Notes: generated by a model from the letters alone, not told the origin. A stretch of 64,000 nt of DNA from Candidatus Nanohalarchaeota archaeon (GCA_022729235.1 JALDAJ010000001.1:32001-96000), one strand, 5' to 3'. Counted from the stretch's first letter, positions 9,324 to 60,328 are shown. Numbers and translations are program-made.

Positions 9324-9413
9324 TGCGGCGTCGGGGATTCGAAACTCTAGCGAGTTTCTGCACCTCAGAACTCTGTCGAGTTCTTCAGTTGAAGACAAAT
9401 CCCGGTCCTAGCA
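9324..9413. repeat. hairpin cassette bounded by two inverted tRNA 3'-end fragments
   Basis: 9324-9343 matches the tRNA-Gly 3' end at 9423-9442 (19/20); 9396-9413 CAAATCCCGGTCCTAGCA resembles a T-arm/acceptor on the + strand. Confidence 0.65.
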
Positions 9414-9422
9414 CATGAAAAA

Positions 9423-9553
9423 TGCGGCGTCGGGGATTTGAACCCCGGTTACGACCATGGCAAGGTCGTGTCTTAGCCACTCCAAAACGTCGGAGACGTT
9501 TTGTGCGAAGCTTGAACTCCGCACAGGAGCTTTAGCCACTGGACCAACGCCGC
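9423..9553 (-). tRNA. tRNA-Gly(GCC) with non-canonical D-loop intron (about 9474-9530)
   Basis: acceptor GCGGCGT/ACGCCGC, anticodon arm CGACC-TTGCCAT-GGTCG, T-loop TTCAAAT; 57-59 nt structured insert in the D-loop. Confidence 0.88.
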
Positions 9554-9603
9554 ATCTCATAGAGATGCTGGGAGCTGAAAACTCGTAAGAGTTTTCAACA
9601 CCG

Positions 9604-9663
9604 CGCAACTGCTGTCAGTTGCATCAACAGAAGCCACATTCGCTGGCGCGAAGTAGCTTTCAG
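9604..9663 (-). ncRNA. tRNA-associated two-hairpin module upstream of tRNA-Gly
   Basis: CTGA-stem-CTGTTGAT-GCAACTG ACAG CAGTTGC-G; homologous to 59898-59952. Confidence 0.6.
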
Positions 9664-9751
9664 GATAACATGTTGTTTTGAGATTGTTAGTTTCTTAAAT
9701 AGCTCGGGAGGGTGTGCAAGAAATTAAAGGTTGGGCAGGCATCCTGTTAGT

Positions 9752-10192
9752 ATGATGGATGAAGAAGAGTTCGAGGATTATCTTGTGGACAAGGCAAAGG
9801 AGATCCTTAACGAGGATATAACGGAATCTGAAGAGGTTGAACCAGAAACACCTCAGAAAGAAGATGTAGTCGATGAAGACGTCAAGGACAAGTCAGCAGG
9901 AAACATACCGTTTTCCTGGGACCCAAGAGAAGTAGAGCATCTCACCCGTAACAGGAAGAAGATGTCTAATGAAGACCTGAAGAAGTTCTTCGAGCGGGAT
10001 AGCGAGTTCCAGGAAAAATTGCAGGAAGTCGACAACTGGAAGGGTTTCACGCGCTGGGAAGAAAGATTGATGGTACAGCAACACTCCGTCAAGACCCCTG
10101 AGGAAATTGCCATGGATCTCGACCGGGATAAAAAAGAGGTGGAACTAAAAATGCATATGATGGGTTTGATCCCGAAAGATGAGCTACGATAA
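9752..10192 (+). CDS. hypothetical protein with two Myb/SANT-like HTH repeats
   Basis: WDPREVEHL and FTRWEERLM...EEIAMDLDR repeats; overlaps the nop5 start. Confidence 0.7.
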   Translation: MMDEEEFEDYLVDKAKEILNEDITESEEVEPETPQKEDVVDEDVKDKSAGNIPFSWDPREVEHLTRNRKKMSNEDLKKFFERDSEFQEKLQEVDNWKGFTRWEERLMVQQHSVKTPEEIAMDLDRDKKEVELKMHMMGLIPKDELR

Positions 10193-10922
10193 AAGGGATG
10201 AGGCGCTTGAAAGAGCGCGCGAAGAGTTATCCACGATCGACCGAGATAGACTTGTTGCGAAGGCAGTCATGCAACTTGAACAGGCAGAAAAGAATTTACG
10301 GGAGGAGATGGAGCGTTTCCGTGACTGGTATAGCCTGCACTTTCCTGAACTGGTTGACGAGGTAGAAGACAATGAGAAACTCGTGGAAATCCTGTCAGAA
10401 AACGCGGACCGGGACGAGCTTGACGCGTTCAGTTCGCTGGCGGAAAAAAGTAAAGGTGCAGACCTAAAAGAGGAAGACCTTGAGATAATAGAAGAAGTAG
10501 CCGAGAAACTTGAGAAAGACTTCGACTACCGGGAAAGCCTCGAAGAATACGTATTGGACGTGTGCGAGGAAGAGATGCCTAACCTTTCACAACTGCTTGA
10601 GCCTCTACTCGCCGCGAAACTTGTCGCGCTGGCAGGAAGCCTTGAAGACCTCGCGAAGAGCCCGGCGTCAACCATCCAGATGCTTGGTGCGGAGAAAGCC
10701 CTGTTCCGCTACCTCGGCGGGGAAGGAACTCCTCCGAAGCACGGCGTGCTGTTCGAGCACAGGTTCGTCCGCTCGCTCCCTGAAGGCGAGCGCGGGAAGA
10801 TGGCACGTTTCCTCGCAAATAAAGCTGCGATGGCGGCGAGACTCGACCAGTACGGGGACAAGCAGAAAGGCGGCGAACTCAGAAACGAGGCGCAGGAAAC
10901 GTATCAGGAGCTTAAAGGATAA
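10179..10922 (+). CDS. nop5: box C/D RNP protein Nop5 (short form)
   Basis: WYSLHFPEL, PASTIQMLGAEKALF and PKHG motifs. Confidence 0.95.
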   Translation: MSYDKRDEALERAREELSTIDRDRLVAKAVMQLEQAEKNLREEMERFRDWYSLHFPELVDEVEDNEKLVEILSENADRDELDAFSSLAEKSKGADLKEEDLEIIEEVAEKLEKDFDYRESLEEYVLDVCEEEMPNLSQLLEPLLAAKLVALAGSLEDLAKSPASTIQMLGAEKALFRYLGGEGTPPKHGVLFEHRFVRSLPEGERGKMARFLANKAAMAARLDQYGDKQKGGELRNEAQETYQELKG

Positions 10923-10955
10923 GCAATGAAATAGTTTGTCGACTGTAACTTGGGT

Positions 10956-11606
10956 ATGCAGCAGATCCAGACAGGTATCTTCAGGGAAAACAACAGACTC
11001 TATACAAGAAACGCTGTCCCTGGAGAAGACGTTTATGGGGAGAAACTTGTAGAAAGAAACGGCGAGGAGTACAGAGAATGGATGCCCGGCCGCTCAAAGG
11101 CAGGCGCTGCAGTTTTGAAAGGAGTTAACCTGGAGCTGGAGCCAGGGCATGAGGTGCTGTACCTCGGTGCTGCCTCAGGGACTACTGTTTCCCACTTCTC
11201 GGATATACTCACAGACGGGTTCCTGGTAGCGGTGGAGTACTCGCAGGATGTAGCTAAGAAACTCGTGAAACTGGCGGAGGACAGAGATAATATAGCTCCT
11301 ATAATCGGTGATGCGAGAAAGCCTAGAGAGTACAGCGACTTCGTAGAGCAAGCAGATATAGTGTACCAAGATATATCCCAGAAAGATCAGGCAGAGATAT
11401 TCAAGAAGAACTGCGATCGGTACCTGAAAGAAGACGGAACAGGGTTAATCGCGGTTAAGGCACAGTCAGTCTCATCAACGAGAGACCCAGTAGAAGTCTT
11501 CGAGGAGGTAAAGAATAAGCTTAGACAGAGGTTCGAGGTAGTTGAAGAAACAACACTGGAACCTCACGAGAAAGACCACCTCTTCCTGAAGCTGGAAAAG
11601 AAATAA
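10956..11606 (+). CDS. flpA: fibrillarin-like rRNA/tRNA 2'-O-methyltransferase
   Basis: VYGE, VLYLGAASGTTVSH and QDISQ motifs. Confidence 0.96.
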   Translation: MQQIQTGIFRENNRLYTRNAVPGEDVYGEKLVERNGEEYREWMPGRSKAGAAVLKGVNLELEPGHEVLYLGAASGTTVSHFSDILTDGFLVAVEYSQDVAKKLVKLAEDRDNIAPIIGDARKPREYSDFVEQADIVYQDISQKDQAEIFKKNCDRYLKEDGTGLIAVKAQSVSSTRDPVEVFEEVKNKLRQRFEVVEETTLEPHEKDHLFLKLEKK

Positions 11607-11612
11607 AGAAGT

Positions 11613-11822
11613 TCAGGCTCTGAGGCCTGGTATGAAGTCCCTGAACGACTGCCCTGCGATGTTCCTGTGGTAACCTCTCATGTCCTCGTAATCCGGGTCC
11701 GCACAGCAGCTGGCGTTCTGGTTGACTATCGGGAGAGTCCCAAGGATAGTGTGTTTTCCAGGCAGCAGGTTTTTCTCCACCCTATTTTCACAATTCAGAC
11801 ATCGAAACTCTATGTTTTCCAT
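11613..11822 (-). CDS. small Cys-rich hypothetical protein
   Basis: CLNC...CC; 69 aa. Confidence 0.6.
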   Translation of the reverse strand: MENIEFRCLNCENRVEKNLLPGKHTILGTLPIVNQNASCCADPDYEDMRGYHRNIAGQSFRDFIPGLRA

Positions 11823-11950
11823 TATTTCCCCTCACCTCGCATCCACGTATTCGCGAGACTTGGTTTATAAAGAAGCGGAGACTGTTCCGGAATTCCGGTA
11901 GACAGATTAGTTTTATATCAAACCGTGCAGAGACTCTTAACGTGGTATAG

Positions 11951-12094
11951 ATGACGAAATGGGAATGCCAGGACTGTGGGAACTCCGTCGAAGCCCCGAC
12001 CGAGCCGGAGCAGTGTCCCTGCGGTTCCGAGAATATCGAAGAGGTTGAAGAGCCGAGTCTTGTCGAGAGATTAAAAACTAAGATAGGGCTCTGA
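11951..12094 (+). CDS. rubredoxin-like/Zn-ribbon microprotein (47 aa)
   Basis: manually translated MTKWECQDCG...PEQCPCGS... Confidence 0.75.
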   Translation: MTKWECQDCGNSVEAPTEPEQCPCGSENIEEVEEPSLVERLKTKIGL

Positions 12095-12183
12095 TAACCA
12101 ATTAACCTCTCTAAATAAGTATTAGCAGTACTCTCTAGATCAGACTATACTAGCCATTTAAATATTTGAGATAAATTTGCCAT

Positions 12184-12723
12184 ATGAACGTAACAACTTC
12201 AGACATAGATTTTGTGGAATCTTATCCACCTGATGAGAAGGGATCTTTCTGTGAAATATATCTCAGACCCAACTCAGTTTTAAAGAGAACCTCTAAAGTA
12301 ACTGAAAACCAGTTAGAACACAGTATCTCTGAATTACCTCATTTTACTCCCGATACCGGCTATACACGTCCAGACTCTGATTTTCTAATAATCAAACAGG
12401 AAAGAGTCGATCAAGTTTACAGACCTGAAAACAGAGAGGAACTTGATACTTTTCTAGAGGATACTCTTGAAATAGTCAGAGAGTCATTCACAAGAGACCT
12501 AAAATTAGACTATAAACCACCCAACTTTGGTCAATTTAATGGAGAAGCACTCTATATAGATAACCACGATATCGGATCATTTCTGAACACAGAAAACCCT
12601 TTCAGCGAAATGGCTCATCAATTGAAAAGACACCTAGAAAACCAAGATTACTACTCCGCGACGATACCTTCACCAGAGGAAATAAACTCTTACTGGTGCT
12701 CTACATCTCCGCTTGCTCCTTAG
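12184..12723 (+). CDS. minimal protein-kinase-like fold protein
   Basis: KGSFCEIY, VLK, DYKPPNFG and YID motifs. Confidence 0.6.
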   Translation: MNVTTSDIDFVESYPPDEKGSFCEIYLRPNSVLKRTSKVTENQLEHSISELPHFTPDTGYTRPDSDFLIIKQERVDQVYRPENREELDTFLEDTLEIVRESFTRDLKLDYKPPNFGQFNGEALYIDNHDIGSFLNTENPFSEMAHQLKRHLENQDYYSATIPSPEEINSYWCSTSPLAP

Positions 12724-13444
12724 CCCAGTCGTAGCCCTCGTCTTCCAGGCGGTGAGCGAGTTCAGGTCCACCAGACTCGACTATCTTCCCGTCAACCATG
12801 ACGTGGACGTGGTCCGGTTTCACGTAGTCGAGGATGCGCTGGTAGTGGGTTATCATCAGCAGTCCGATTTCCTGCTCCTCGGCGACTGTGTTTATACCCT
12901 CAGAAACAACTTTCAACGCGTCGATATCTAGCCCTGAATCGATTTCATCGAGAACCGTGTATTTCGGCTCCAGAACGGACATCTGGAGTATCTCGTTCCG
13001 CTTCTTTTCTCCACCAGAGAAGCCTTCGTTCAGGTAGCGCCGGGCGTATTCATCGTCCATGTCAAGAAGGTCAAGCTTTTCTCTTAGGTGCTCTCTGAAC
13101 TCGGAGCTTCCCATAGGTTCATCCCGTCTTTCATCAAGAGCCTCTTTCAGGAACTCTGCAACTGTAATTCCTGATATCTCGCTAGGGTACTGGAACGCGA
13201 GGAAAAGTCCTTCTTCAGCTCTTTCATCGGCTTCTTCATCCGTGACCTCTTCACCGTCAATAATGATCTTTCCAGCATCTATCGAGTACTGAGGATTACC
13301 CATAAGCGAGTGCGCAAGTGTCGATTTACCGGAGCCGTTCGGACCCATCAACGCGTGGATCTCACCCGGCTTGACTTCCAGGTTTACGCCTTTGACAATT
13401 TTCTCGCCCTCGATAGAAACCTCCAGATCTTTTATCTCTAACAT
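12701..13444 (-). CDS. sufC: Fe-S cluster assembly ATPase SufC
   Basis: GPNGSGKST, FLAFQYP and FSGGEKKRNEILQ motifs. Confidence 0.97.
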   Translation of the reverse strand: MLEIKDLEVSIEGEKIVKGVNLEVKPGEIHALMGPNGSGKSTLAHSLMGNPQYSIDAGKIIIDGEEVTDEEADERAEEGLFLAFQYPSEISGITVAEFLKEALDERRDEPMGSSEFREHLREKLDLLDMDDEYARRYLNEGFSGGEKKRNEILQMSVLEPKYTVLDEIDSGLDIDALKVVSEGINTVAEEQEIGLLMITHYQRILDYVKPDHVHVMVDGKIVESGGPELAHRLEDEGYDWAKEQAEM

Positions 13445-13492
13445 AGTGTTTTAGGTAGGCCTAAACTTTCTTAACGTGCCGGGTCCTGAAGT

Positions 13493-14128
13493 TCACTTCT
13501 CTCCCCGCATCTCTTCCTTGAAACGTTCCACGTATCTCTTGACGTACTTGTGGCGGTCCTCCGCAATCTCTCTTCCGGCGTCCGTATACATCCTGTCCTT
13601 GAGACCCAGTATCTTCTTCTGCAGGTGGTTTAGAGAAGTCTCCCCGGAATCGGATTCGTCATGTTCGACAGGCAAGCCAGGGTCTGCGATGACTCCACGG
13701 TTCTCCCCGCCGTACGTGAAAGTCCTTGCGATTCCGGTGGCACCGAGCGCGTCCAGGTTGTCGGCGTCAGATAGGACTTTAGCCTCAAGAGTCCCGGGCT
13801 CAGGTCCTCCCGAATACCGGTGCGAGCGGACGCAGTGCTTTACCTTCTTAATTGTACTTTCACCGTAACCGAGGTCACTCAACACTGTTTCTGCCTCATC
13901 GGCACCCCACTCCGCGTGGTCATTGATTTCTCCATCGTCTTCGAGCCCCCTGCCTATATCATGGAGCAGCGCCGACAGCCTCACTGTCTCGAGGTCTGCC
14001 CCCTCATCTCTCGCGAGCTTCTCCGACAGATTGTAGACTCTCATGACGTGAAACCAGTCGTGGGCAGGATTAACATCGCCAAAATATTCTTTTGCCCTCT
14101 TTTTGACATCTTCAAATCCTGAGTCCAT
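13493..14128 (-). CDS. HD-domain protein (YedJ-like)
   Basis: AHDWFHVMRV, LLHDIG and DADNLDALGA motifs. Confidence 0.9.
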   Translation of the reverse strand: MDSGFEDVKKRAKEYFGDVNPAHDWFHVMRVYNLSEKLARDEGADLETVRLSALLHDIGRGLEDDGEINDHAEWGADEAETVLSDLGYGESTIKKVKHCVRSHRYSGGPEPGTLEAKVLSDADNLDALGATGIARTFTYGGENRGVIADPGLPVEHDESDSGETSLNHLQKKILGLKDRMYTDAGREIAEDRHKYVKRYVERFKEEMRGEK

Positions 14129-14154
14129 GAACCAGCTTCAAACTACAACCATTT

Positions 14155-14508
14155 TCAGTCTTTCTCCAGCGCCTCTTGAACAGTCTTTAAACCCAGTACT
14201 GCGCATTTGACTCGCATCGGCGAGATCTCGATACCTAGCTTGTCTATCATCCAGTCTCTGTTAAGTTCCTTGACCCTATCTACATCTACGCCTTCTATCT
14301 CTTCACTCAGTACAGAAGCTCCAGCAGTCGATATAGCGCATCCGTCGGTCTCGTGCCTCATCTCCTTTAGTTCTCCGTCTTCAACGTGGACGTAGACGTG
14401 ACAGTGGTCGCCGCAGCTCGAGTTCTCTCCTTCCGCTTCCAGCGCGTTCTCAAGAGTCCCGAGGTTCCGCGGGTTTTTGTAGTGGTCGAGTATCTCGTCC
14501 CTGTACAC
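14155..14508 (-). CDS. sufU: Fe-S scaffold/sulfurtransferase SufU
   Basis: ILDHYKNPRN, CGD, GCAIS and RVKC motifs. Confidence 0.95.
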   Translation of the reverse strand: MYRDEILDHYKNPRNLGTLENALEAEGENSSCGDHCHVYVHVEDGELKEMRHETDGCAISTAGASVLSEEIEGVDVDRVKELNRDWMIDKLGIEISPMRVKCAVLGLKTVQEALEKD

Positions 14509-15686
14509 TACCGGAACACCTCACGGACTTTTCTTATCGCTTCAAGGAATTTTTCCACGTCCTCCTCAGTGTTGTATAGGTACGGCGAGGCGCGGGCGGT
14601 CGCGGAAACGCCGAGTTTCTCCATAAGCGGCTGGGCGCAGTGGTGACCAGCACGAATCGCCACATCCTCCTGGTTGAGTATCTCGGAGATGTCGTGAGGG
14701 TGCGCCTCCTTCATCGTGAACGAGACAAGACAAGCACTCTCAGGAGAAAGAACTTTGACTCCGTCGATTTTCGCCAGCCCTTGAATCATCTGTTCCGCAA
14801 GTTCTTTCTCGTGTTCCTGGATATTCTCAAGTCCAACGTTTTCAAGGTATTCGATAGCCTCTGCAAGCCCTACTGTTCCGGCGATGTTTGGCGTCCCGGC
14901 TTCGAACTTCTGCGGCGACTCCTCCCACTGTGTCTCATCGCGCTTGACCGTTCTTATCATACCTCCACCTGTCTGGTACGGCTCCATCTCTTCGAGCAGC
15001 TCTTTCCTCGCGTAAAGAACTCCAATTCCTGTCGGTCCGAGCATCTTGTGACCGGAGAACACGAGGAAGTCCACATCGAGTTCTTTCACATCAGTAGGTA
15101 TCCTCGGTACTGACTGCGCGCCGTCGACCATTATGTAAGCATCGTTTTTGTGCGCCAGTTCTGCCAGCTCTTCTACCGGGTTATCGTTGCCGTACACGTT
15201 GGATACGTGAGAAACTGATACCAGTGCCGTATCCTCATCGAACATCTTTTCTGCGGCTTCGAGGTCGATACCGTTTTCGTCCGCAGGTATGAACTCGAAC
15301 TCCAGCCCTTCTTCCTCCGCTTTTCTTCTCCAAGGCAGCTGCTCTGAGTGATGTGCAGTCTCCGGCACCAGTATCTTTCCATCGAGTTCAAGCGAAGAAG
15401 CAACGAGGTTGATAGACTCGGTAGCGTTCCGGGTGAAGACTATCTCGTCCTTTCTCCCGCCGATGAAATCCGCGACTTTTTTCCGCGAGTTCTCGTACGC
15501 CTCCGTCGCGCGGTATCCAAGTTCGTGTAGCGAGCGGCCAATATTCGCGTTCTCCTCCCTGTAAAACCTGTTGACTCTCTCGATTACCCGCTCCGGGGTC
15601 TGCGTGGTCGCAGCGTTGTCAAGATAGGTAAGTTCCGGCTTCTCCTGGAATACAGAGAAGTCTTTCTTCAGTTTTTCCGAATTCAT
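14508..15686 (-). CDS. sufS: cysteine desulfurase SufS
   Basis: YLDNAAT, SGHKMLGPTG and RAGHHCAQP motifs. Confidence 0.96.
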   Translation of the reverse strand: MNSEKLKKDFSVFQEKPELTYLDNAATTQTPERVIERVNRFYREENANIGRSLHELGYRATEAYENSRKKVADFIGGRKDEIVFTRNATESINLVASSLELDGKILVPETAHHSEQLPWRRKAEEEGLEFEFIPADENGIDLEAAEKMFDEDTALVSVSHVSNVYGNDNPVEELAELAHKNDAYIMVDGAQSVPRIPTDVKELDVDFLVFSGHKMLGPTGIGVLYARKELLEEMEPYQTGGGMIRTVKRDETQWEESPQKFEAGTPNIAGTVGLAEAIEYLENVGLENIQEHEKELAEQMIQGLAKIDGVKVLSPESACLVSFTMKEAHPHDISEILNQEDVAIRAGHHCAQPLMEKLGVSATARASPYLYNTEEDVEKFLEAIRKVREVFR

Positions 15687-15724
15687 AGGACAGGCTTTAC
15701 AGTCAAATCTTTTTAGCTGTTTAA

Positions 15725-16105
15725 CTAGAGCCGGTCCCAGTCAATAACTTCAACGCCTTCAATTCTTTTGAAGTGTTCAGCGTTTGCGGTCAGGATTTTT
15801 TCATTGTATTTCAACGCGGTCGCTGCTATGTATATGTCGTTTATTTCTATTCTTTGACCGGATTCTATAAGATCCGCCATTATTTCTCCTGCTTTATCTG
15901 CTACTTCTTCACCTATAGGTATCACTTCTAGATTCTGGCCTATCCTGTCAAATTTTGAGTCAGGAGCGTTGTTCAGGTATTTTCCCGTCGATAGCTCCAT
16001 GTATGCTGCTGAACTGATAGAGTGTTTTCCCTCCGGCAGTTTCTGAAGCTTCTCAACACCTTTCCCCCGATCAAGATCAACGAGTACAGAAGAATCAATT
16101 ATCAT
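15725..16105 (-). CDS. VapC-family PIN-domain toxin
   Basis: IIDSSVLVD and DIYIAATA...LTAN..HF motifs. Confidence 0.92.
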   Translation of the reverse strand: MIIDSSVLVDLDRGKGVEKLQKLPEGKHSISSAAYMELSTGKYLNNAPDSKFDRIGQNLEVIPIGEEVADKAGEIMADLIESGQRIEINDIYIAATALKYNEKILTANAEHFKRIEGVEVIDWDRL

Positions 16106-16320
16106 GCATGTTCATCCTCTAAACTGTCGAAATTCTCATCTGATGCCTCTTTAACACCTTCTTTAACTTTCTCCCATTCGTACGAGACACCCGTATCCTT
16201 CAGCTCTTCGAAGTCGGTCTCATCCCTCATATCCCGTATCAACTCAGAGAAGCTTCTATCCCCCTTCTTCTTTTTCATCCACTCATACACATCATCAGCG
16301 ACAGAAATCGTCCTCGCCAT
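16102..16320 (-). CDS. VapB-like antitoxin (DUF217 type)
   Basis: RTISVADDVY...SFSELI; overlaps the PIN gene. Confidence 0.88.
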   Translation of the reverse strand: MARTISVADDVYEWMKKKKGDRSFSELIRDMRDETDFEELKDTGVSYEWEKVKEGVKEASDENFDSLEDEHA

Positions 16321-16416
16321 ATATACATATGTGCAAACAGATTTTTAAATAAATTTCTCTGGAGCAGTAGACGCCTAAATCGTCCGAACTGGCTCGAAAA
16401 ATATTTCTGATCAAGA

Positions 16417-18935: not shown

Positions 18936-18984
18936 GTTAGTTTTAGGTACGCCTAAACCTTTAAATCTGCTGAACGTTTCCGGT

Positions 18985-19377: not shown

Positions 19378-19401
19378 ACCTAATTATTCTTCTTCAAACT
19401 A

Positions 19402-20257: not shown

Positions 20258-20275
20258 GAACCTATTAAACATGCT

Positions 20276-29626: not shown

Positions 29627-29998
29627 TTATTCTTCTTTTTCCAGGAGTTCAGCTGATTTTTGGGCGATATCTTCGACATCGTTTTCTGCAGATCCGCTCG
29701 CAGTTATCGCGATCGCGGCTGATTGAACTCCGATACCTGCAGCAAGACCTAGTTCCTCTCTTTCAGGTACAAATGTGTACGGGATGTCTCGTTCCTCACA
29801 GAGCGCAGGGATGTGCATCACGATTTCTTCGGGAGAAACATCGCTGGCGATAACAACCAGTTCTGCCTCGTTCCTCTCAATCGCCTTGGTAACTTCGTTG
29901 GTTCCGATAACTACTTTTCCGGAACCTTCTGCTTCTTCAACTGTGTCGTAGGTTTTTTCTGCTAGTGATTCTCCTGGTTCAAATTTTTGGTAAGCCAT
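29627..29998 (-). CDS. rpl7ae: ribosomal protein L7Ae
   Basis: GTNEVTKAIER and IASDVSPEEIV motifs; ATG at 29998. Confidence 0.96.
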   Translation of the reverse strand: MAYQKFEPGESLAEKTYDTVEEAEGSGKVVIGTNEVTKAIERNEAELVVIASDVSPEEIVMHIPALCEERDIPYTFVPEREELGLAAGIGVQSAAIAITASGSAENDVEDIAQKSAELLEKEE

Positions 29999-50757: not shown

Positions 50758-50827
50758 ACTTGAGCATTTTACCTAAGTTACCTTTAAATGGGTATCGTCA
50801 GGCAGAAGACGGGAAACATCTGCACAA

Positions 50828-51346: not shown

Positions 51347-51376
51347 AGAGTATCTTGCCCCAGTCTTCTTTTTCAA

Positions 51377-51916: not shown

Positions 51917-51942
51917 AAAGAGAATATTACTGATGAAGAAAT

Positions 51943-52185
51943 TTACAGTTGATCCTCTATCTCATCCATCCACTCTCTCGCAGTCTCGATCGCGTCCTCA
52001 AGGATCTCTTTCTGATCGTCACCTTCGATTATTAGCTGTGACTCATCGCCTAGAGGGTGACCTTTGTCGTAGGCTGCCTGTCCGCTTTTCTCCCATACAG
52101 CCTTCCGGATAAGATTTGCGATACCGTGGTTCTGTTGCATGTCGATGATAAGTCTATCGTCTTTCTCAACTGTCTCAAGTTCCAT
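51943..52185 (-). CDS. rpoL: RNA polymerase subunit L (Rpo11)
   Basis: H.IANLIR and AAY...HPL motifs; context. Confidence 0.85.
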   Translation of the reverse strand: MELETVEKDDRLIIDMQQNHGIANLIRKAVWEKSGQAAYDKGHPLGDESQLIIEGDDQKEILEDAIETAREWMDEIEDQL

Positions 52186-52786: not shown

Positions 52787-52838
52787 GTTCTCAGGTCAGA
52801 CGTGAAGGATTTAAGATTAACGCTCCATCACGTAGGGC

Positions 52839-54470
52839 ATGCCCGAGGCAACTGAAGAATTCGAAGACCTTTCACGTGAAGAGCTTGTAGAGAAAATCAA
52901 GAAGATGCAGGAGGATAAAGTGGTTTTCTTTGAACCACAGCGAGAGATAATAGTTTCGAATCCTTCTGAGGAAACGCTTAATGAGATATCAGAAATCGCG
53001 CACATGGCAACCTCCTCGGGCGAACACTACAAGTTCGAAGTACGGGAGATGGATATCTGGAACTCTGAGCTATCTCTTGAAGAAATGAGAGAGAAATACA
53101 CGAGGATACTGGGATCGTATCCCCGGTTCATAGAATGGCTGGAGAGAACCTATGAAAAGCAGGAGATGTTCTCGATAGAACATGAAGGTACCTATCACGC
53201 CCTGGTAGCGGAAGACGAGGAACGCATGGAGTGGGCGCGCAGTATCGAGGGGGTACGGGACAACCTCGCTGTTGACCTTACAGACAACAAGTCCCGTATC
53301 GCGATGGGAGCCAAATCCCGCGCAAAAATCAAGGAGGCTCTGCTGAAGAAAGGCTACCCGGTAGAGGACAACTCCAAGTTCCGGGAGGTCGACGAGAAAA
53401 TCGGTGCTGACCTGAAAATCGACCTGAGGGATTACCAGGAAGAGTACGTCGCGAGAGCTTACGATGAAAAGGCAGCAGTACTGGCGAACCCTGCCGGCTC
53501 AGGTAAAACAGTTACTTCTATCGGCCTCATGGCCAGGATAGATGCGCCAACACTGGTGCTCGTACCACAGCGCTCGCTGGTGAACCAGTGGAAGCGCGAG
53601 ATACTTGACAAGACAACTATCACCGAGGACCAGATAGGCGAGTTCCACGGCGGTGACAAGGAGATGAACGATGTGACCATCGCGACATACCACATGGCGG
53701 GAGAGAAGACCTCGCTGTTCCGGAAGGACTGGGGTCTGATAATCTTCGATGAAGTCCACCACATCCCCTCACAGCTTTTCAGGAGAACCGCATCGCTACA
53801 GTCAACGCGCAGGATAGGTTTAAGCGCGTCACCTGTCAGGGAGGATTCAAAAGAAAGGGAGATATTCGCGCTTATAGGTCCTGAAATCGGCGGTGACTGG
53901 GCTCGTTTCTTCCAGCAGGACTTCGTCCTCAAGCCAGACGTGAAGATACAGTTCGCGGAGTGGGAGAGCGATGCCTACCGCCACAAGTACAACCAGGCAT
54001 CCGGAATCAAGAAGGCTATAATCGCCTCTAAAAACCCGGCGAAAAAGCAGCAACTGGAGAACCTCCTCGATGAACACAGCGATGACAAGACCATCATCTT
54101 CTGTGACTGGATAGACCAGGGAGAAGAACTGGAAGAAGAATACGATATACCTTTCATCTCCGGCGAAACAGATTACGAGGAACGGGAAAAATACTTCCAG
54201 AAGTTCCGTGACAACGAACTTGACACCCTCATCGTGTCCCGTATCGGCGACGAAGGTCTCGACCTGCCCGACGCAGAGATAGGTATCATCATGTCCGGAC
54301 AGGGAGGCTCAAGGAGACAGGCAACCCAGAGAGCAGGAAGAGTCATGCGCCCGTTCGGCGACGCCAAGGTCTACATGATAGCGACCAAGGGCAGCAACGA
54401 GGAAGACTTCGCCAAACACCAGGTAGAACTCCTGAAAGAGAAAGGAGTTCCTGTAACGGTGGAAGGGTGA
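52839..54470 (+). CDS. XPB/Rad25-family helicase
   Basis: PAGSGKT, DEVHH, GLSASPVRED and QRAGRVMRP motifs. Confidence 0.9.
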   Translation: MPEATEEFEDLSREELVEKIKKMQEDKVVFFEPQREIIVSNPSEETLNEISEIAHMATSSGEHYKFEVREMDIWNSELSLEEMREKYTRILGSYPRFIEWLERTYEKQEMFSIEHEGTYHALVAEDEERMEWARSIEGVRDNLAVDLTDNKSRIAMGAKSRAKIKEALLKKGYPVEDNSKFREVDEKIGADLKIDLRDYQEEYVARAYDEKAAVLANPAGSGKTVTSIGLMARIDAPTLVLVPQRSLVNQWKREILDKTTITEDQIGEFHGGDKEMNDVTIATYHMAGEKTSLFRKDWGLIIFDEVHHIPSQLFRRTASLQSTRRIGLSASPVREDSKEREIFALIGPEIGGDWARFFQQDFVLKPDVKIQFAEWESDAYRHKYNQASGIKKAIIASKNPAKKQQLENLLDEHSDDKTIIFCDWIDQGEELEEEYDIPFISGETDYEEREKYFQKFRDNELDTLIVSRIGDEGLDLPDAEIGIIMSGQGGSRRQATQRAGRVMRPFGDAKVYMIATKGSNEEDFAKHQVELLKEKGVPVTVEG

Positions 54471-54474
54471 AGAG

Positions 54475-54822
54475 ATGACTGAAGTAATCTATTTAGCCGA
54501 CAGAAAAGACGGAGAAGAACTTCGTGCCGTAGAACTTCATGAAATAGAAAGAGAACTCGAGGAAGAAAGCGATGGATGGTCGATAGATAATAAACTAGAA
54601 GATATCCCACAAGAAATCAGAGAACACGCCGAGCAAATAAGAAATGAGAAAGAAAACTCTGACCGGTTCTACGAAAACGTAGTAAGATATGAAATAGAGG
54701 GAGAAGGAGAAGCATACTTATTCAGAACTGAAAAGGGATACGTAATCGCCTCCGAAGAAGGTCTACCCGACGCCCTCCCCAATGAGGATAGTCCTGACGA
54801 ATTATACTTCGACCCTCAGTGA
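54475..54822 (+). CDS. hypothetical acidic protein
   Basis: 115-aa ORF. Confidence 0.65.
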   Translation: MTEVIYLADRKDGEELRAVELHEIERELEEESDGWSIDNKLEDIPQEIREHAEQIRNEKENSDRFYENVVRYEIEGEGEAYLFRTEKGYVIASEEGLPDALPNEDSPDELYFDPQ

Positions 54823-54857
54823 GGAGAATTATTAACTTACTGTTCTTAATCAACCGT

Positions 54858-54929
54858 ATGCCTATAATCGAAGCAGAGAACCTGTCGAAGACGTTCAGGA
54901 ATAAATTTTCTGGACTCTTCACAGAATAG
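54858..54929 (+). pseudogene. orphan duplicate of the ABC ATPase 5' end
   Basis: MPIIEAENLSKTFR versus MPIIKAENLSKTFR at 55574. Confidence 0.75.
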
Positions 54930-55488
54930 TGGAAAAGAGTGCAAACTCAACGACAACAACAGTAATTGCAAGCAGCAGTATCGTATATATAGCGTCAAAC
55001 CAGAAGAAACGTAGTTTATCACCTACATAAATTAGCGCCGCTACAGGCATGCCCAGAGTCGCAAACAGCGATCTTCTCCATTCTCTTTTAGAATGATGCC
55101 AAATATTCTTGGCGTCCGTTGAGCTTGGTATAGCATGCATACCTGTACTAAAACCTATCCAGGCAATGAATAGAGCTATCAAATTTAAAACCAAATTATT
55201 CTCGTTGATAGCCTGAACCTCAGTTGCAACAACAGCCAAGAGGGCGAGAGGTATGAACAACATAATTGCCAAAAATGTATTTATCAGGAAAGGAGCTCCT
55301 GAAATCGCAAATGTATCTGCAAAATTGTTAGTTCGTTCATGCTTAACATACCCTGCAGGATTGCCTATACGGAAATAACACACTTCAAAAACACGTACAT
55401 CTCTTCTATTACACATTCTCTCATGAGCATATTCGTGAATAATCACGCCTGGAAAAGTCAATATAGATATAAGCCAGCCCGGTATCAC
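54919..55488 (-). CDS. membrane metalloprotease-like protein (HExxH; DUF3267/M50-like)
   Basis: PGVIIHEYAH, APF and PSSTD motifs; AT-rich. Confidence 0.8.
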   Translation of the reverse strand: MIPGWLISILTFPGVIIHEYAHERMCNRRDVRVFEVCYFRIGNPAGYVKHERTNNFADTFAISGAPFLINTFLAIMLFIPLALLAVVATEVQAINENNLVLNLIALFIAWIGFSTGMHAIPSSTDAKNIWHHSKREWRRSLFATLGMPVAALIYVGDKLRFFWFDAIYTILLLAITVVVVEFALFSTIL

Positions 55489-55573
55489 GATTATAACTAT
55501 TAATTAAGCCCTATATAGAAGTTTTCCCGTTTAAACCTCATAAATTAAAACTATACTCGCTCTTCAAAATAAT

Positions 55574-56551
55574 ATGCCCATAATCAAGGCTGAAAACCTT
55601 TCCAAGACATTCAGAATTTACCAGCGAGAGGAAGGTATAACCGGATATCTAAAGGGCTTTCTTACCCGCGACTATCGGGAGGTCGACGCCGTTGAAGACC
55701 TTGACCTTGAAATCGAGAGAGGTGAGATGATAGGGTACATCGGTGCGAACGGCGCCGGTAAATCCACGACTGTGAAGATGCTGACCGGTATCCTCGAACC
55801 CTCGGGCGGCAGAATCGAGGTTGACGGGAGGAATCCTCACAGGGAGAGGAAAAAGAACGCGATGAACATCGGGGTCGTGTTTGGACAAAAAACGCAGCTC
55901 TGGTGGGACCTGCCGGTGCGGGAGTCCTTCAAGCTCCTGAGACAGATCTACGAGGTCGATGAAGACGATTTCGAGGAGCGTATCGAAGAGTTCGACGAGG
56001 TCCTGCAGCTGAAAGAGTTCTGGGAACAGCCCGTCAGGAAGCTTTCACTCGGACAAAAGATGCGCTGTGAGCTAGCCGCTGCATTTTTACACCACCCGCC
56101 GATAGTCTACCTGGACGAACCAACTATCGGTCTAGATGTCGCCGTGAAAGAACGGATACGTGACTTCATCCGGAAGATGAACCGGGAGAACAATATTACG
56201 GTAATGCTGACCACGCACGATATCGGCGATATAGAGGATTTATGTGATAGGATAGTGGTGTTGGACGAGGGCCGGAAGATATACGACGGCGAACTCGACA
56301 CGCTCGTCAACAGGTTCACGTCCCGGCGACTGATACTTGACCTGAAGTCGGAGCCCAACTTCCACCTGGAAAAAGAAGGTGTTGATGAAATCGATATCGA
56401 CGGGAGGACGGAGATAGTTTTCAACCGCGAGAAGATCTCCGCGTCGGATCTTATGAAGCGCGTCCTGGAGCGATATGACGTTATCGACTTCGAGCTGCGG
56501 GAGCCGAACATCGAGCAGGTTGTCAAGAAGATATACAACGAGGGTCTGTGA
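55574..56551 (+). CDS. ABC transporter ATP-binding protein
   Basis: GANGAGKST, LSLGQ and LDEPTIGLD motifs. Confidence 0.95.
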   Translation: MPIIKAENLSKTFRIYQREEGITGYLKGFLTRDYREVDAVEDLDLEIERGEMIGYIGANGAGKSTTVKMLTGILEPSGGRIEVDGRNPHRERKKNAMNIGVVFGQKTQLWWDLPVRESFKLLRQIYEVDEDDFEERIEEFDEVLQLKEFWEQPVRKLSLGQKMRCELAAAFLHHPPIVYLDEPTIGLDVAVKERIRDFIRKMNRENNITVMLTTHDIGDIEDLCDRIVVLDEGRKIYDGELDTLVNRFTSRRLILDLKSEPNFHLEKEGVDEIDIDGRTEIVFNREKISASDLMKRVLERYDVIDFELREPNIEQVVKKIYNEGL

Positions 56552-57339
56552 ATGCACCTGAGAAAGTACCTTGAGTTCACGCGTATCGGTATCAGGGAGG
56601 GCTCAGCCTACAGGTTCAACGCAGTCATGGCGCTCGGAACCTCGATACTCTACCTACTGCTGTACTTCTTCATCTGGAGCGCTATCGACGAGGCAGGGTC
56701 TATACAGGGAGGGCTGGGACAAGTCATGGCCTACCTTGTCATCGGGCAGCTGGTGTCTAACACAGTATTTATGAACACGGAGGAGTTCTTCGGCGAGAGG
56801 ATACGTAGAGGTACTATCGTAAACGAGCTGAAGCGCCCGATGTCCCTGCGTTTGCAGACCTATTTCTACGAAATCGGTTGGGCGTGCTTCAGGTTTGTGA
56901 CAAGAGGGTTACCGGTGTTCATTTTCGGCATGCTGTTTTTCGATGTCAGCCTTCCCGGTCTCTCCACGCTCGCGTTGTTCGGAGTGAGCATGTTCCTCAG
57001 CCTTAACCTAGTCTTCTCCTTCGCATACATCACCTCGATGCTGGTGTTCTGGACCAAAATAGACTGGAGCGTCAGGATGGCAAGGAACGTCATCCAGAAC
57101 CTGTTCTCGGGAGTTATGTTTCCCCTCTACCTGCTTCCCGGGACGCTTGAGACCGTTTTCAACGCACTGCCGTTCCAATCCATGGCTGACGGTCCGATTT
57201 CGATATACCTGATGCAGCAAACCGGCGAGAGGCACTGATGGTTCTGGTCCAGCAGCTGGGCTGGATACTGTTCTTCCTCCTCGCGGGGGAACTGTTCTGG
57301 AGAAAAGCCCGGAAAAAACTGACGGTTCAGGGGGGATAG
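56552..57339 (+). pseudogene. ABC-2 permease with frameshift near 57228
   Basis: ORF stops at 57238; another frame continues EALMVLVQQLGW...LTVQGG* to 57339. Confidence 0.75.
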
Positions 57340-57340
57340 T

Positions 57341-58141
57341 ATGGACGCGAGGAAGCACCTGAAAATCTACTGGTACTACTTCAAGCAGTACTGGAAGTCC
57401 CGGCTTGTCTACAAGAAAGACTTCCTCCTCGGGTTCACCAGCCAGATGATCAACCTAGCGGTGTCGATAGCTTTCATCGGTCTCCTGTTCACGCAGGTCG
57501 ACGCCATCCAGGGCTGGACCTTCAACGAGATGCTCTTCCTCGCGGGACTGAGCGGTTTCATAATGAATCTGCACCACATCTTCATGTTCAACATATACCG
57601 GCTCGGAGACAACTACGTCGTCAGCGGTGACTTCGACCGTTTCCTGGTGCGACCGCTCAACCCACTGTTTCAGGTGTACGCGGACGACGTCGGAGACAAT
57701 AACCTGTCGAAGTTCCTCGCCAACATCTTCCTGATAGCGTATGCCTCCAGCCAGATAGGTCTCGAACTCCTGACTCTTAGCAACCTGACCTATGGAGTTT
57801 TCGCTGTACTGAGCGGGGTACTGGTGTTCGCATCGATGTACCTCTGGTTCGCGACCACCGCGTTCTGGACTGGTAGGAGCCGGGCCGCGATATGGCTGAT
57901 CTTCCGGCTCAGCGACTTCAGGAAGTACCCTTACAGCATCTACAGCTTCGGTATACAGATCATACTGATAACCATCGTCCCTATCGCGTTCGCCTCGTTC
58001 TTCCCCGCTACCTACTTCCTCGGGAAGGAGGGCTGGGCGTTCTGGCAGTACCTGACAATATTCGTAGGACCATTGTTCTTCCTCGTTGCCTACGGGTTCT
58101 GGAAGATAGGGCTGAAGAACTACTCAAGTACCGGGAGCTAG
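57341..58141 (+). CDS. ABC-2 family permease
   Basis: GDFDRFLVRP, KYP.SIY and C-terminal YSSTGS. Confidence 0.9.
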   Translation: MDARKHLKIYWYYFKQYWKSRLVYKKDFLLGFTSQMINLAVSIAFIGLLFTQVDAIQGWTFNEMLFLAGLSGFIMNLHHIFMFNIYRLGDNYVVSGDFDRFLVRPLNPLFQVYADDVGDNNLSKFLANIFLIAYASSQIGLELLTLSNLTYGVFAVLSGVLVFASMYLWFATTAFWTGRSRAAIWLIFRLSDFRKYPYSIYSFGIQIILITIVPIAFASFFPATYFLGKEGWAFWQYLTIFVGPLFFLVAYGFWKIGLKNYSSTGS

Positions 58142-58189
58142 AAAAAAGTAATAAGTTATACCATTTGGGAGGAAAAACACGATTAGATA

Positions 58190-58981
58190 ATGTTTACTAG
58201 AGAAAAAAGAAGTGCTGAAGAAATTTATAGGTTCTCAAATAAGTCGAGAGGTTATATCCAATCAGCCTTTGAAAACGGTTATGAGAAGGACGTGCTCAGT
58301 TTTTTATCAGAAATTTATATTCCTCTGGTTGAAAGATATCTTAGTCTCGATCCAGATTTAAGAACACATGATGATTTTCCGGAAGACATAGATTACTGGG
58401 AAACGAGACTTGAAGGATTTGAAGGCGATTTCGATTATACTCCTCTTGAGGTCCCTGATCTTTACAGAGGGTTCTATGAAGAAGTGTATAATCTATGGGA
58501 CGATACCGATTTTGATAAAGTAATAGGTATCGCCACCAGCGGACTTCCTTTTGCAGCCATAGTCGCAAACCTTACAAACACACCGTTTGAAATGGTGAAA
58601 TACTCTCACTGGGATGGGAACGATGAAAGAGTAGTAGATAGATGGATAGGAGACAGTCTACAGGGGAAAAAAGTTGTACTTGTAGATGATACTATATCTA
58701 CAGGAGAAACCGTAGAGAACGTAACTAATTACCTTAATAACCAGGGCGTCTCAAGTATTCACGGTGCATTTCTAAAAGCCAATTCCAGATGTGCAAGTAG
58801 AATCGAGGAGAACTATGAGGAGTTGCTGATTATTAGAAAAACAGGAATAGAGCCTCTAATTCGACAGAACCTAGAAGAAGATATCAAAAAACTTCAATAT
58901 TTAAATCCTGAAGTCTCTCACCAAGAAGAGAGGTTAAAAAGTAGAAAACCTAAAACAGACCTGCCTCTACCTCTAATGTGA
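58190..58981 (+). CDS. type I phosphoribosyltransferase-domain protein
   Basis: GIATSG and VVLVDDTISTGET motifs; AT-rich. Confidence 0.85.
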   Translation: MFTREKRSAEEIYRFSNKSRGYIQSAFENGYEKDVLSFLSEIYIPLVERYLSLDPDLRTHDDFPEDIDYWETRLEGFEGDFDYTPLEVPDLYRGFYEEVYNLWDDTDFDKVIGIATSGLPFAAIVANLTNTPFEMVKYSHWDGNDERVVDRWIGDSLQGKKVVLVDDTISTGETVENVTNYLNNQGVSSIHGAFLKANSRCASRIEENYEELLIIRKTGIEPLIRQNLEEDIKKLQYLNPEVSHQEERLKSRKPKTDLPLPLM

Positions 58982-59027
58982 ACACGGTATTTAAAGAAAC
59001 GTCGGGTATGAAGGTGCTAGGTGCGAC

Positions 59028-59567
59028 CTACTCAAACTCTTCCCTGTAGAGCTCCTGCGACCTTTCAATTGCTTCCTTCGCTTCTTCGACATCTCCCCAG
59101 CCCTCGATCTCGACTTCTTTCTTGGGCTCCAGGTTCTTGTAGGTCTTGAAGAACTCCGAGATCTCTTTTCTCGTGTGTTCTTCGATGTCGTCAAGGTCTT
59201 CGACATCGTTCCACCGCGGGTCTTCTGTCGGTACCGCGATGATGTTGTCGTCCTGTTCACCGCCATCGTCCATGTAGAGGATTCCGACTGGTCGGCACTC
59301 GATCACGCATCCTGGGAATGTTGCTTGCGTTGTCAGCACAAGGATGTCCATCGGGTCGCCGTCCTCGTAGTATGCCTGCGGGATGAAACCGTAGTCTCCC
59401 GGGTAGTGAACCGCGCTGTGAAGAACTCTATCTAGAACAACACTCTCCATGTCTTTGTCGTACTCGTACTTGTTCTTGGTTCCCTGAGGGTTTTCGATTA
59501 CTGCATAAATCGTGTCCGGCGCCTCGCCGTCCGGTCCTGTCGGATAGTCCTGCCACTTGTTAACCAT
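59028..59567 (-). CDS. ppa: inorganic pyrophosphatase
   Basis: KYEYDK, YGFIP, DGDPMD and FFKTYK motifs. Confidence 0.97.
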   Translation of the reverse strand: MVNKWQDYPTGPDGEAPDTIYAVIENPQGTKNKYEYDKDMESVVLDRVLHSAVHYPGDYGFIPQAYYEDGDPMDILVLTTQATFPGCVIECRPVGILYMDDGGEQDDNIIAVPTEDPRWNDVEDLDDIEEHTRKEISEFFKTYKNLEPKKEVEIEGWGDVEEAKEAIERSQELYREEFE

Positions 59568-59607
59568 TCTGTATCACGTAGAAAGGATAGAGGAGAGACT
59601 TTTATTC

Positions 59608-59763
59608 TTACTCCCGCTTCTGTGTCGTGGCGGAAAGCCTTACCATAGAAACATTCTTGATGGCTCCGCACCTGGAGCATACAACTTTGACCCAGTCAAC
59701 GTTGGGTTTCTCTACAGGATTCACGTGCAAATCTCGATCACATTCGTCGCAGGTAGCGGGCAT
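59608..59763 (-). CDS. Zn-ribbon microprotein (51 aa)
   Basis: manually translated MPATCDEC...VVCSRCG...; GGAGG upstream. Confidence 0.6.
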   Translation of the reverse strand: MPATCDECDRDLHVNPVEKPNVDWVKVVCSRCGAIKNVSMVRLSATTQKRE

Positions 59764-59897
59764 CTAACTTCCTCCTCTACGAACTACTTCTCCATCGAAC
59801 TATTTAAGCATAACTTTGAGACAGTCAAGGGAGTGATAGGGAATAAAAAAGATTACACAGAACAGGGAATATACAAAGCCAAACAAGACCAAAAAGC

Positions 59898-59952
59898 CTG
59901 AAGTGCGTTCGTCTTACGAACGTGCTATGTTGATGAAACTGACAGCAGTTTC
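59898..59952 (+). ncRNA. tRNA-associated two-hairpin module abutting the tRNA-Val 5' end
   Basis: homologous to 60232-60286 and to 9604-9663 (- strand). Confidence 0.6.
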
Positions 59953-60027
59953 GGGTTCGTAGTCTAGCTTGGTTATGACACCGCCTTGACATGGCGGAGA
60001 TCCCCAGTTCAAATCTGGGCGAACCCA
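59953..60027 (+). tRNA. tRNA-Val(GAC)
   Basis: acceptor GGGTTCG/CGAACCC, anticodon arm CCGCC-TTGACAT-GGCGG, T-loop TTCAAAT. Confidence 0.95.
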
Positions 60028-60051
60028 TACGGGCGATGATATGAGTCCAAC

Positions 60052-60328
60052 GGGAAGGTAGCTCAGGTGGTAAGAGCGCTGCGCTCATAACAACTTTATG
60101 AGCGATGAGGGTCACTGTCTCGCCATGCGTGACAGTTCGAGAAGATCACATCGTTCTTTAAAGAACGATGTTCAAACACCGTTTCCCGAAAACGGTGTGT
60201 CTCTGATCTTCGACCCGATGATTAAAACATCTTGAAGTGCGTTCGCTTTGCGAACGTGCTATGGTGATCGAACTTCCAGAAGTTCGTGAGATACGCAGAG
60301 GTCGCGGGTTCGAGTCCCGCCCTTCCCA
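60052..60328 (+). tRNA. tRNA(CAT), probably elongator Met, with 203-nt intron at 37/38 (60090-60292)
   Basis: acceptor GGGAAGG/CCTTCCC; BHB with CTCA/TGAG helix and TAA/ATA bulges; CTGCG/CGCAG anticodon stem. Confidence 0.9.
60090..60292 (+). ncRNA. intron-encoded box C/D-like guide RNA (predicted target C34)
   Basis: guide TTATGAGCG followed by ATGA, with stem GGGTC/GACCC and ATGATTA. Confidence 0.7.

Follow-up and report, generated by a model that had tools for sequence, protein, structure and literature searches.

A structured 50-60-nt cassette at tRNA loci of a Candidatus Nanohalarchaeota archaeon and its relatives

We analyzed a stretch of 64,000 nucleotides (the window) from a Candidatus Nanohalarchaeota archaeon (GCA_022729235.1, JALDAJ010000001.1:32001-96000), corresponding to bases 32001-96000 of a genome that consists of a single contig of 1,027,595 bases with 48.5% G+C. 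The subject is a short non-coding cassette of 50-60 nt with two hairpins, four copies of which (a-d) are located in the window around the genes for tRNA-Gly(GCC), tRNA-Val(GAC) and tRNA-Met(CAT) (Table 1). The original prediction, made from the sequence of the window, had described a module repeated four times, always at tRNA loci and always in tRNA sense. This observation was confirmed and much extended, and all four copies were verified in the window sequence at the coordinates and on the strands where they had been placed.

The last base of copy a is the base immediately before position +1 of tRNA-Val(GAC), at 59953. Copy b, of which stem 1 is identical to that of copy a, lies within the intron of tRNA-Met(CAT), with its end 6 nt upstream of the 3' splice site. 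Copy c is found in the leader of tRNA-Gly(GCC), with a TATA-like box about 30 nt upstream of its CUGA (by eye), and is directly followed by an imperfect copy of the tRNA-Gly 5' end; a further hairpin-rich insert stands between this 5'-end copy and the true 5' end. Copy d was reported to adjoin a duplicated tRNA-Gly 3' end, and the duplicate was indeed seen there.

A profile of copies a-d searched with nhmmer gave the leader of tRNA-Ser(CGA) as the best match outside the seed (E 0.0014). Covariance models were preferred over a home-made descriptor scan, which was abandoned after 245 loose matches. One such model (R1) was used to gather copies from other genomes. Because three further copies had been spotted by eye in tRNA flanks, a biased form of discovery, a second model (R2) was built from 28 copies of other genomes only, with none from this genome. 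R2 placed eight cassettes first in the whole genome, namely copies a-d and additional copies in the leaders of tRNA-Ser(CGA) and tRNA-Pro(GGG), in the trailer of tRNA-Cys(GCA) and in the intron of tRNA-Thr(UGU). Seven of these scored 37.8-57.5 bits and the Thr copy 22.7 bits, the next match in the genome reaching 19.3 bits (E 0.049). All eight are linked to tRNA genes and lie in tRNA sense, and tRNA genes with 150 nt on either side make up about 1.4% of the genome. The exclusive location at tRNA loci and the sense orientation thus held for this genome (8/8), but not for its relatives, in which antisense and start-codon copies occur.

Table 1. Cassette copies, associated tRNA features and other genes. 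Positions are those of the window, and in the last four rows those of the genome; R2 is the covariance model built from copies of other genomes only, and z-scores are from 200 shuffles.
Feature	Position	Strand	Details
Duplicate (17 nt) of the tRNA-Gly(GCC) 3' end, T-loop to discriminator, after copy d	9324..9340	-	19-nt match with at most 1 mismatch
Copy d (d-type)	9340..9388	-	CUGA, stem, GAGG-type linker without C-like box, hairpin 2; 51.3 bits, 49.1 bits with R2
tRNA-Gly(GCC), true extent	9423..9553	-	59-nt D-loop insert at 9473-9531, flanked by a 9-nt direct repeat
Imperfect copy (9 nt) of the tRNA-Gly 5' end, directly after copy c	9596..9604	-	from sequence
Copy c (a-type)	9604..9663	-	tRNA-Gly(GCC) leader; 47 bits, 43.2 bits with R2; z -4.0
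Nop5 gene	10278-10901	+	about 600 bases from the tRNA-Gly locus with copies c and d (with the fibrillarin gene)
Fibrillarin gene	10983-11588	+	see Nop5 gene
L7Ae gene	29684-29956	-	in the window
Copy a (a-type)	59898..59952	+	CUGA, stem 1 of 10-11 bp, degenerate C-like linker, 7-bp hairpin 2; 57.8 bits, 57.5 bits with R2; z -3.7
tRNA-Val(GAC)	59953..60027	+	ARAGORN; Rfam tRNA 64.3 bits
tRNA-Met(CAT)	60052..60328	+	203-nt intron at canonical position, 60090-60292; ARAGORN with intron option
Copy b (a-type)	60232..60286	+	within the tRNA-Met(CAT) intron; 56.3 bits, 57.5 bits with R2
tRNA-Cys, with 3'-end copy	259729-259878		example of 3'-end-copy pattern
tRNA-Phe, with 3'-end copy	281014-281132		example of 3'-end-copy pattern
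tRNA-Lys, with 3'-end copy	728214-728350		example of 3'-end-copy pattern
tRNA-Trp, with 3'-end copy	921928-922103		example of 3'-end-copy pattern

Helices, subtypes and box-like motifs

Each of the four copies folds into both predicted hairpins (z -3.1 to -4.0), and in no case did a shuffled sequence fold as well (0/200). The compensatory stem changes that had been claimed for the window are real: in hairpin 2, three pairs are altered on both sides between copies a and b, and one pair between a and c. An alignment of 38 copies was then considered, which was fitted to the model and in this way favours pairing, yet the margin was large, with 93.8% of the cells paired compared to 71.1% in shuffles. 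Changes on both sides were seen in 12 of the 14 pairs and amounted to 125 cells, a value attained by 0 of 500 shuffles, compared to 38.5 in shuffles. As a control the partner was slid by one to three columns, which left the pairing at 46.8% at most. Both predicted helices are strongly supported by these compensatory changes.

The family motifs are clearer in relatives than in this genome. The consensus of the relatives runs from a box-D-like CUGA through stem 1 and a canonical box-C-like AUGAUGA to a conserved 7-bp hairpin with an NCAG loop, the end of which is situated within about 2 nt of tRNA position +1. The commonest forms of the linker contain UGAUGA, which was found in 13 of the 33 rows binned as a-type, and 28 of the 33 fit the looser pattern UG-N-UG-R (one of these rows, L037, is really d-type). 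In the copies a, b and c and in the Ser copy the C-like box is degenerate. A sister subtype, the d-type, is formed by copy d, the Cys trailer copy and the Thr intron copy; its linker begins with GAGG and holds no C-like box, T-loop-like sequence follows, and the fold of copy d shows a symmetric tandem G.A internal loop closing stem 1. The succession of D box, stem, C-like box and stem, proposed for all four copies in the window, accordingly describes a-c, with the degeneracy mentioned, and does not describe d.

In Rfam searches of the window only tRNA passed at the gathering score and no family matched the cassette; at relaxed thresholds the best overlap with copy b reached 23.1 bits against a cut-off of 35. 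No published description of this cassette was found in the literature searched. Both results agree with the earlier statement that it does not belong to a described family.

The motifs resemble those of box C/D RNAs. A box C/D guide small RNA (sRNA) has RUGAUGA near its 5' end and CUGA near its 3' end; in the cassette both motifs are present, but D precedes C and a hairpin lies between them, as expected of an internal D'/C' pair in a box C/D RNA. Because of this order, the cassette may descend from, or mimic, intron-borne or mobile box C/D RNAs. A variable guide segment of 10-12 nt was not found in the cassette, as the space between the boxes is taken by the self-complementary helix 1 and that after the C-like box by the conserved hairpin 2, and identity as a full box C/D guide sRNA was rejected for want of a guide.

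A kink-turn consists of a helix, a 3-nt bulge, tandem sheared G.A and A.G pairs and then a non-canonical helix. The cassette is similar in that CUGA is followed by a helix and faces a UGAUGA-type strand, giving potential G.A/A.G, U.U and G-C pairs. By inspection, the copies with CUGG-A (the tRNA-Pro(GGG) leader copy and loci L019, L020 and L040) fit the canonical kink-turn register, with a UAU bulge and then GA. The CUGA copies, in contrast, have an A.A pair in this register or a bulge of 2 nt instead of 3 with stem 1 fully paired, and in copies a, b, c and Ser-CGA the essential A at the second position is replaced by U or G. Binding of L7Ae by some copies is possible. Kink-turn or K-loop motifs bound by L7Ae are described for box C/D RNA, RNase P RNA and the leader of the L7Ae mRNA (available text of PMC5539422 and PMC6298567). 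If the box C/D-like part of the cassette is truly bound by L7Ae, it would be a new kind of kink-turn RNA, present on pre-tRNAs and on mRNAs (dnaJ and a ribosomal-protein gene).

Copies in related genomes

At E<=0.01, R1 gave matches in 25 of 41 genomes, this genome included, and the 40 relatives hold 0 to 17 copies each. Phylum-wide, 38 of 70 genomes have a match at E<=1e-4. By genome family, matches were found in 33 of 49 genomes of the family of this archaeon (f1, this genome not counted), in 2 of 10 of f3, in 1 of 8 of f4, in the single genome of f5 (1/1) and not in that of f2 (0/1). About 15 of approximately 125 matches lie within 350 nt of a contig start, as is expected because repeats break assemblies.

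Thirty cassette sites in relatives were read individually, with the tRNA identities of intron-bearing genes assigned partly by eye. Ten of them are sense leaders ending at tRNA +1, and six are on the opposite strand with the hairpin-2 end against the tRNA 3' end or its duplicate. Introns hold two copies in sense and two in antisense; two more are trailers of the sister type, two, from two genera, stand flush with the dnaJ ATG (the J domain was confirmed), and the context of six was unassigned. The dnaJ copies recall 5'-leader kink-turns that regulate translation.

A coordinate-based count covered 61 matches in five genomes, in which tRNA detection was incomplete (14-33 genes per genome). It was found that 33 of the 61 are within 300 nt of a model-detected tRNA and 18 within 5 nt of a tRNA end. 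The 33 tRNA-linked matches comprise 13 sense leaders, 12 of which are within 5 nt of the tRNA 5' end; 12 copies on the opposite strand that face the tRNA 3' end, six of these within 5 nt; 4 sense trailers; 2 antisense copies in introns and 2 others. No tRNA was detected near the other 28, at least three of which lie in or beside tRNAs called by ARAGORN. The association of the cassette with tRNA genes is robust. In relatives at least four intron copies are antisense, an orientation in which the motif is destroyed, and some introns are made up largely of cassette. A TATA-like box was seen by eye 20-36 nt upstream of CUGA in at least eight leader copies.

The hairpin-2 end is the tRNA-proximal end in 25 of the 33 tRNA-linked matches, so that the cassette faces a tRNA end from either side. 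This layout would suit an independent gene for a small RNA, that of a box C/D-like ribonucleoprotein of half size or permuted order, whose ends are formed by RNase P or RNase Z with the help of the neighbouring tRNA or of a tRNA-like antisense structure. Since the cloverleaf fold is retained in an antisense tRNA, the 3' end of the cassette could result from RNase P cleavage in both layouts, and the promoter-like box is at a suitable distance (by eye). There is also a precedent in Nanoarchaeum equitans, for which the available text of Randau 2012 (PMC3491384) describes C/D sRNAs that are mobile, dicistrons of tRNA and sRNA, an sRNA located inside the tRNA-Met intron and sRNAs in which box D precedes box C. 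We nevertheless consider this explanation improbable, as the cassette lacks a guide-like variable segment of 10-12 nt and as antisense intron copies and copies inside operons do not suit a gene with its own ends.

The comparison with N. equitans can be taken further. According to the same available text, its sRNAs are similar to the cassette in holding C and D motifs within about 55 nt, in being adjacent to tRNA genes or inside the tRNA-Met intron and, for some, in having D before C; mobility was proposed for them with the mechanism unknown, and their ends are made by tRNA-processing enzymes. The cassette differs in having no guide segments, so that no methylation target can be proposed, and in boxes that flank a hairpin like an internal D'/C' pair instead of closing the RNA. 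It furthermore has a second conserved hairpin at tRNA +1, and antisense and start-codon copies. Dicistronic tRNA-sRNA precursors also occur in plants.

Comparison of orthologous loci revealed differences in presence and absence at the Val-Met locus, at a KH-domain gene and at tRNA-Ala(GGC). The Val-Met locus is syntenic in six relatives (G002, G005, G006, G009, G012 and G015), and copy b is missing from the orthologous Met intron of all six. The Val leader has no cassette in G005, G012, G002 and G015; in G006 there is a diverged module-like sequence, and in G009 the contig begins at the tRNA, which makes the leader unjudgeable. G015 instead has two copies at this locus, one in antisense that borders the Val 3' end and one in sense that borders Met +1. 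Among copies that this genome does not have, one in G001 is flush with the start codon of the KH-domain gene in a ribosomal-protein operon, and the orthologous site of this genome is uninterrupted; upstream of the G001 insert there is a degenerate copy of about 15 nt of the KH-domain gene start. Similarly, the leader of tRNA-Ala(GGC) has a copy in G001 and none in this genome. A 191-nt contig from DNA reads (depth 3.4), identical over 59953-60095 and diverging exactly at 59953, was considered as a close variant without copy a; it is a weak hint and too thin to use. The other alignments from the four DNA read sets consisted mostly of conserved tRNA portions from other organisms, and junctions spanning the Met intron, derived from short contigs of low similarity, were disregarded.

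Direct repeats were found near several cassettes, with lengths of 9, 14, about 15, 17-22 and more than 50 nt, the upstream repeat being 10-75 nt from the cassette. The 14-nt repeat flanks a copy in G004 and the repeat of more than 50 nt a copy in G035.

In four places two cassettes stand back to back (G001:C15:9694-9824, G004:C4:3585-3714, G024:C46:6431-6589 and G015:C1:672361-672475), approximately 20-30 nt apart and with the hairpin-2 ends outward, like the two ends of a composite element.

Mobility of the cassette and rival explanations

In our judgement it is somewhat probable that the cassette is a lineage-restricted, non-autonomous mobile unit of box C/D-like ancestry that is tolerated at sites from which it is removed by RNA processing. 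Copies would be added to new sites at the DNA level, and the survivors would be those with the hairpin-2 end flush with a tRNA end, near an exon boundary or at a start codon. At tRNA sites the cassette would be transcribed as leader, intron or trailer, and RNase P, the splicing endonuclease or 3' processing would then take it out, rendering it harmless. Short-homology recombination or duplication is our guess for the copying route, preferred over a transposase because the length of the direct repeats differs from case to case (9 to more than 50 nt). Removal of the leader at copy a by the splicing endonuclease was rejected, since hairpin 2 and +1 are too close together to accommodate a central helix with its bulge.

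A mobile element was one of two alternatives in the original prediction, the other being an L7Ae-bound module for the processing or stability of pre-tRNAs (discussed below), and in substance the mobile element fared well: copy numbers range from 0 to 17, copies a and b are absent from orthologous positions, sites occupied elsewhere are empty here, and some introns are rich in cassette. It fell short in that inverted repeats, a fixed duplication and a mobilising enzyme were not found, as specified below. The notion that such an element strictly targets tRNA genes was abandoned, as the start codons of dnaJ and of the KH-domain gene are also hit.

Several observations weigh against mobility. No terminal inverted repeats were found, the cassette ends being unlike each other (5-7-nt resemblances were seen by eye in two cases), and a target duplication of fixed length was not found among the flanking repeats examined. 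Cas1 (PF01867), the type of integrase that a casposon-derived element would have in its genome, was found in 3 of 41 genomes and not in this one. Y1 (HUH) transposase (PF01797) was found in 1 of 41 genomes, outside the family of this genome, and so does not co-occur with the cassette as expected for REP/PATE elements of the IS200/IS605 type. A reverse transcriptase was found in 0 of 25 genomes. A tyrosine recombinase was matched in 25 of 41 genomes, but not in G004, G008 and G015, which hold 13, 6 and 10 copies. Among these four types of enzyme none tracks the copy number of the cassette; DDE transposases and TnpB were not searched. The nearest genome is 75-78% identical in the flanking genes, and losses could explain the differences in presence and absence; gains are indistinguishable from losses, and no fresh insertion was caught among the genomes compared.

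Other points against mobility are findings that fit a selected role at the RNA level at least as well. The unpaired CUGA and UGAU motifs are conserved, the start-codon copy of dnaJ occurs in two genera, and helix 1 contains 19 G.T compared to 4 A.C pairs. As an argument for an RNA role this strand asymmetry is suggestive only, because helix 2 shows the opposite counts (1 G.T and 10 A.C) and the sister subtype is misaligned there. Finally, in 12 of 13 sense leaders no more than about 2 nt separate the 3' end of the cassette from tRNA +1.

The exact abutment to +1 is also what would be seen for a selected cis-acting element of pre-tRNAs, a kink-turn-like domain of leader or intron that binds L7Ae and thereby shields the precursor or holds it in place for RNase P or the splicing endonuclease. 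L7Ae is a subunit of RNase P in archaea. The TATA-like boxes upstream of CUGA would make the cassette the first part of the transcript, the C/D-like motifs are conserved with the CUGG-A copies in kink-turn register, and the G.U bias of helix 1 points in the same direction. The genes for L7Ae, Nop5 and fibrillarin are present, as is RNase P RNA, for which a full-length match (G000:C1:267694-268099, +) scored 50.1 bits against a gathering score of 84 and is therefore divergent. On the other side, this genome has only four leader copies among at least 35 tRNAs, which argues against a general role in maturation, and different tRNAs bear the cassette in different genomes. The U or G in place of the kink-turn A in copies a, b, c and Ser, the antisense intron copies with their destroyed motif, the copies at protein-gene starts and the d-type without C-like box are further difficulties, and we regard such an element as unlikely. 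Both this explanation and that of a separate small RNA gene remain live, because the abutment to tRNA +1 is exact and the unpaired motifs are conserved. The RNase P RNA match was seen approximately 280 bases upstream of tRNA-Arg(UCU).

The hairpins could also act as DNA, in a REP/PATE-like palindromic unit with a single-strand transposase, in a protein-binding palindrome or in a portable promoter. Because a hairpin on one strand implies one on the other, covariation alone is no proof of an RNA role; in addition, relatives have the cassette in both orientations relative to the host gene, and the target-adjacent end is the hairpin-2 end. We think it very improbable all the same, given that a Y1 transposase was found in none of 24 relatives of the same family, nor in this genome, that the conserved single-stranded motifs are strand-asymmetric and that helix 1 accepts G.T far more than A.C. 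As for a portable promoter, the TATA-like boxes are upstream of the cassette and not within it (by eye). Retro-insertion, by RNA ligation and reverse transcription, suits the exact abutment to RNA 5' ends and was rejected on the lack of a reverse transcriptase (0/25 genomes) and on the antisense copies, which do not fit it.

Returning to a mobile cassette, the closest known comparison at the DNA level is with miniature inverted-repeat transposable elements, as both are short, non-coding, structured and present in multiple copies, with variable copy number, presence or absence between genomes, some empty orthologous sites and enrichment at contig ends. The cassette differs from these elements in having no terminal inverted repeats, neither a target-site duplication of fixed length nor a cognate transposase was found for it, and it is strikingly set against tRNA ends and exon borders.

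A tyrosine recombinase beside a tRNA gene is the usual signature of an integrated element. In this genome a tyrosine-recombinase gene (G000:C1:862694-863212, -) was seen approximately 700 bases from tRNA-Thr(GGU) (863906-864053).

Introns, inserts and trailers of the host tRNA genes

The origin of the introns, split points and odd flanks of archaeal tRNA genes is an unsettled question on which this cassette bears. An alignable, structured cassette that can be traced across 38 genomes, with empty orthologous sites and flanking repeats, makes this question testable. Fujishima reportedly described, in 2010, transposing bulge-helix-bulge tRNA introns of Thermoproteales. For disrupted tRNA genes an origin by integration or recombination has been proposed (available text of Sugahara 2012, PMC3293823), and the route by which tRNA introns arrive is still open according to the accessible part of a 2026 preprint on Asgard tRNA introns. 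The present loci are similar to those of Thermoproteales in that different tRNA genes have intervening sequences in common and tRNA fragments stand beside intact genes. The difference is that here a defined unit smaller than an intron appears to move, into leaders, trailers and introns and in both orientations, and that there is no 1.8-kb recombinase-bearing element.

ARAGORN called 35 tRNAs in this genome, 20 of them with introns. In tRNA-Met(CAT) a bulge-helix-bulge was recognized by eye, in which CUCA of the anticodon loop and UGAG of the intron form a 4-bp helix with a 3-nt bulge on each strand. Copy b is a passenger within this intron and not the intron itself. The core of the intron (60090-60231 in the window and loci L058-L063) is conserved across seven genomes, with two GAUGA motifs around a hairpin and then UUAAA. 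Possibly this core encodes a box C/D guide RNA carried by the intron, though neither clear D boxes nor targets were made out. The second part of this core is shared by the tRNA-Trp intron of this genome. Downstream of tRNA-Met, at 60340-60440 (+), a sister-type hairpin 2 is followed by a degenerate stretch resembling a T-arm plus acceptor, a layout like that of other trailers.

The gene for tRNA-Gly(GCC) was mis-called by ARAGORN and Rfam, which saw only 9424-9492 (27.1 bits), the true 5' end being at 9553. Its predicted precursor has full acceptor pairing and a fold like a bulge-helix-bulge (z -5.6), and the D-loop insert is absent from the orthologues in G003 and G009. In the fold predicted for the precursor, pairing between the copies of the direct repeat gives the central helix of a relaxed bulge-helix-bulge, next to a 3-nt bulge beyond which the closing helix of the insert lies. 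This model suggests that an insertion together with its direct repeat can by itself create a splice motif.

From here it is conceivable, though we hold it to be doubtful, that this lineage gains and enlarges its tRNA introns, leaders and trailers by means of the cassette and its sister hairpin units, which would be an archaeal counterpart of eukaryotic introners. Insertion plus a short direct repeat would make the splicing motif, as in the tRNA-Gly(GCC) D-loop fold, and the helix next to the splice site would come from hairpin 2.

Duplicated tRNA ends were found to be common in this genome. A copy of its own 3' end (at least 14 nt with at most 1 mismatch) occurs within 160 nt downstream of 10 of the 35 tRNAs, compared to 48 of 1190 in a control with the ends of other tRNAs, and a copy of its own 5' end (same length and mismatch limits) upstream of 4 of the 35, compared to 6 of 1190. 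Trailers of different tRNAs have homologous hairpin units in common and differ in their tRNA-derived parts. Considered as bona fide introns, the T-loop trailers allowed a central helix of only 3 of 4 bp in copy d and no such helix in the Lys type. The sequence between a tRNA gene and its end copy also includes a short stretch complementary to the T-arm of the tRNA concerned. In the case of tRNA-Gly(UCC), what follows the gene is instead a copy of the 3' end of tRNA-Gly(GCC).

Additionally, seven introns at the canonical position form one family (Gln 233210, Leu 235815, Arg 268378, Arg 298036, Thr 411886, Lys 728214 and Arg 820519). They have a common start and two common hairpins, and vary only in the 4 nt paired to the anticodon loop. 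This family resembles the spread of introns between tRNA genes that is reportedly seen in Thermoproteales.

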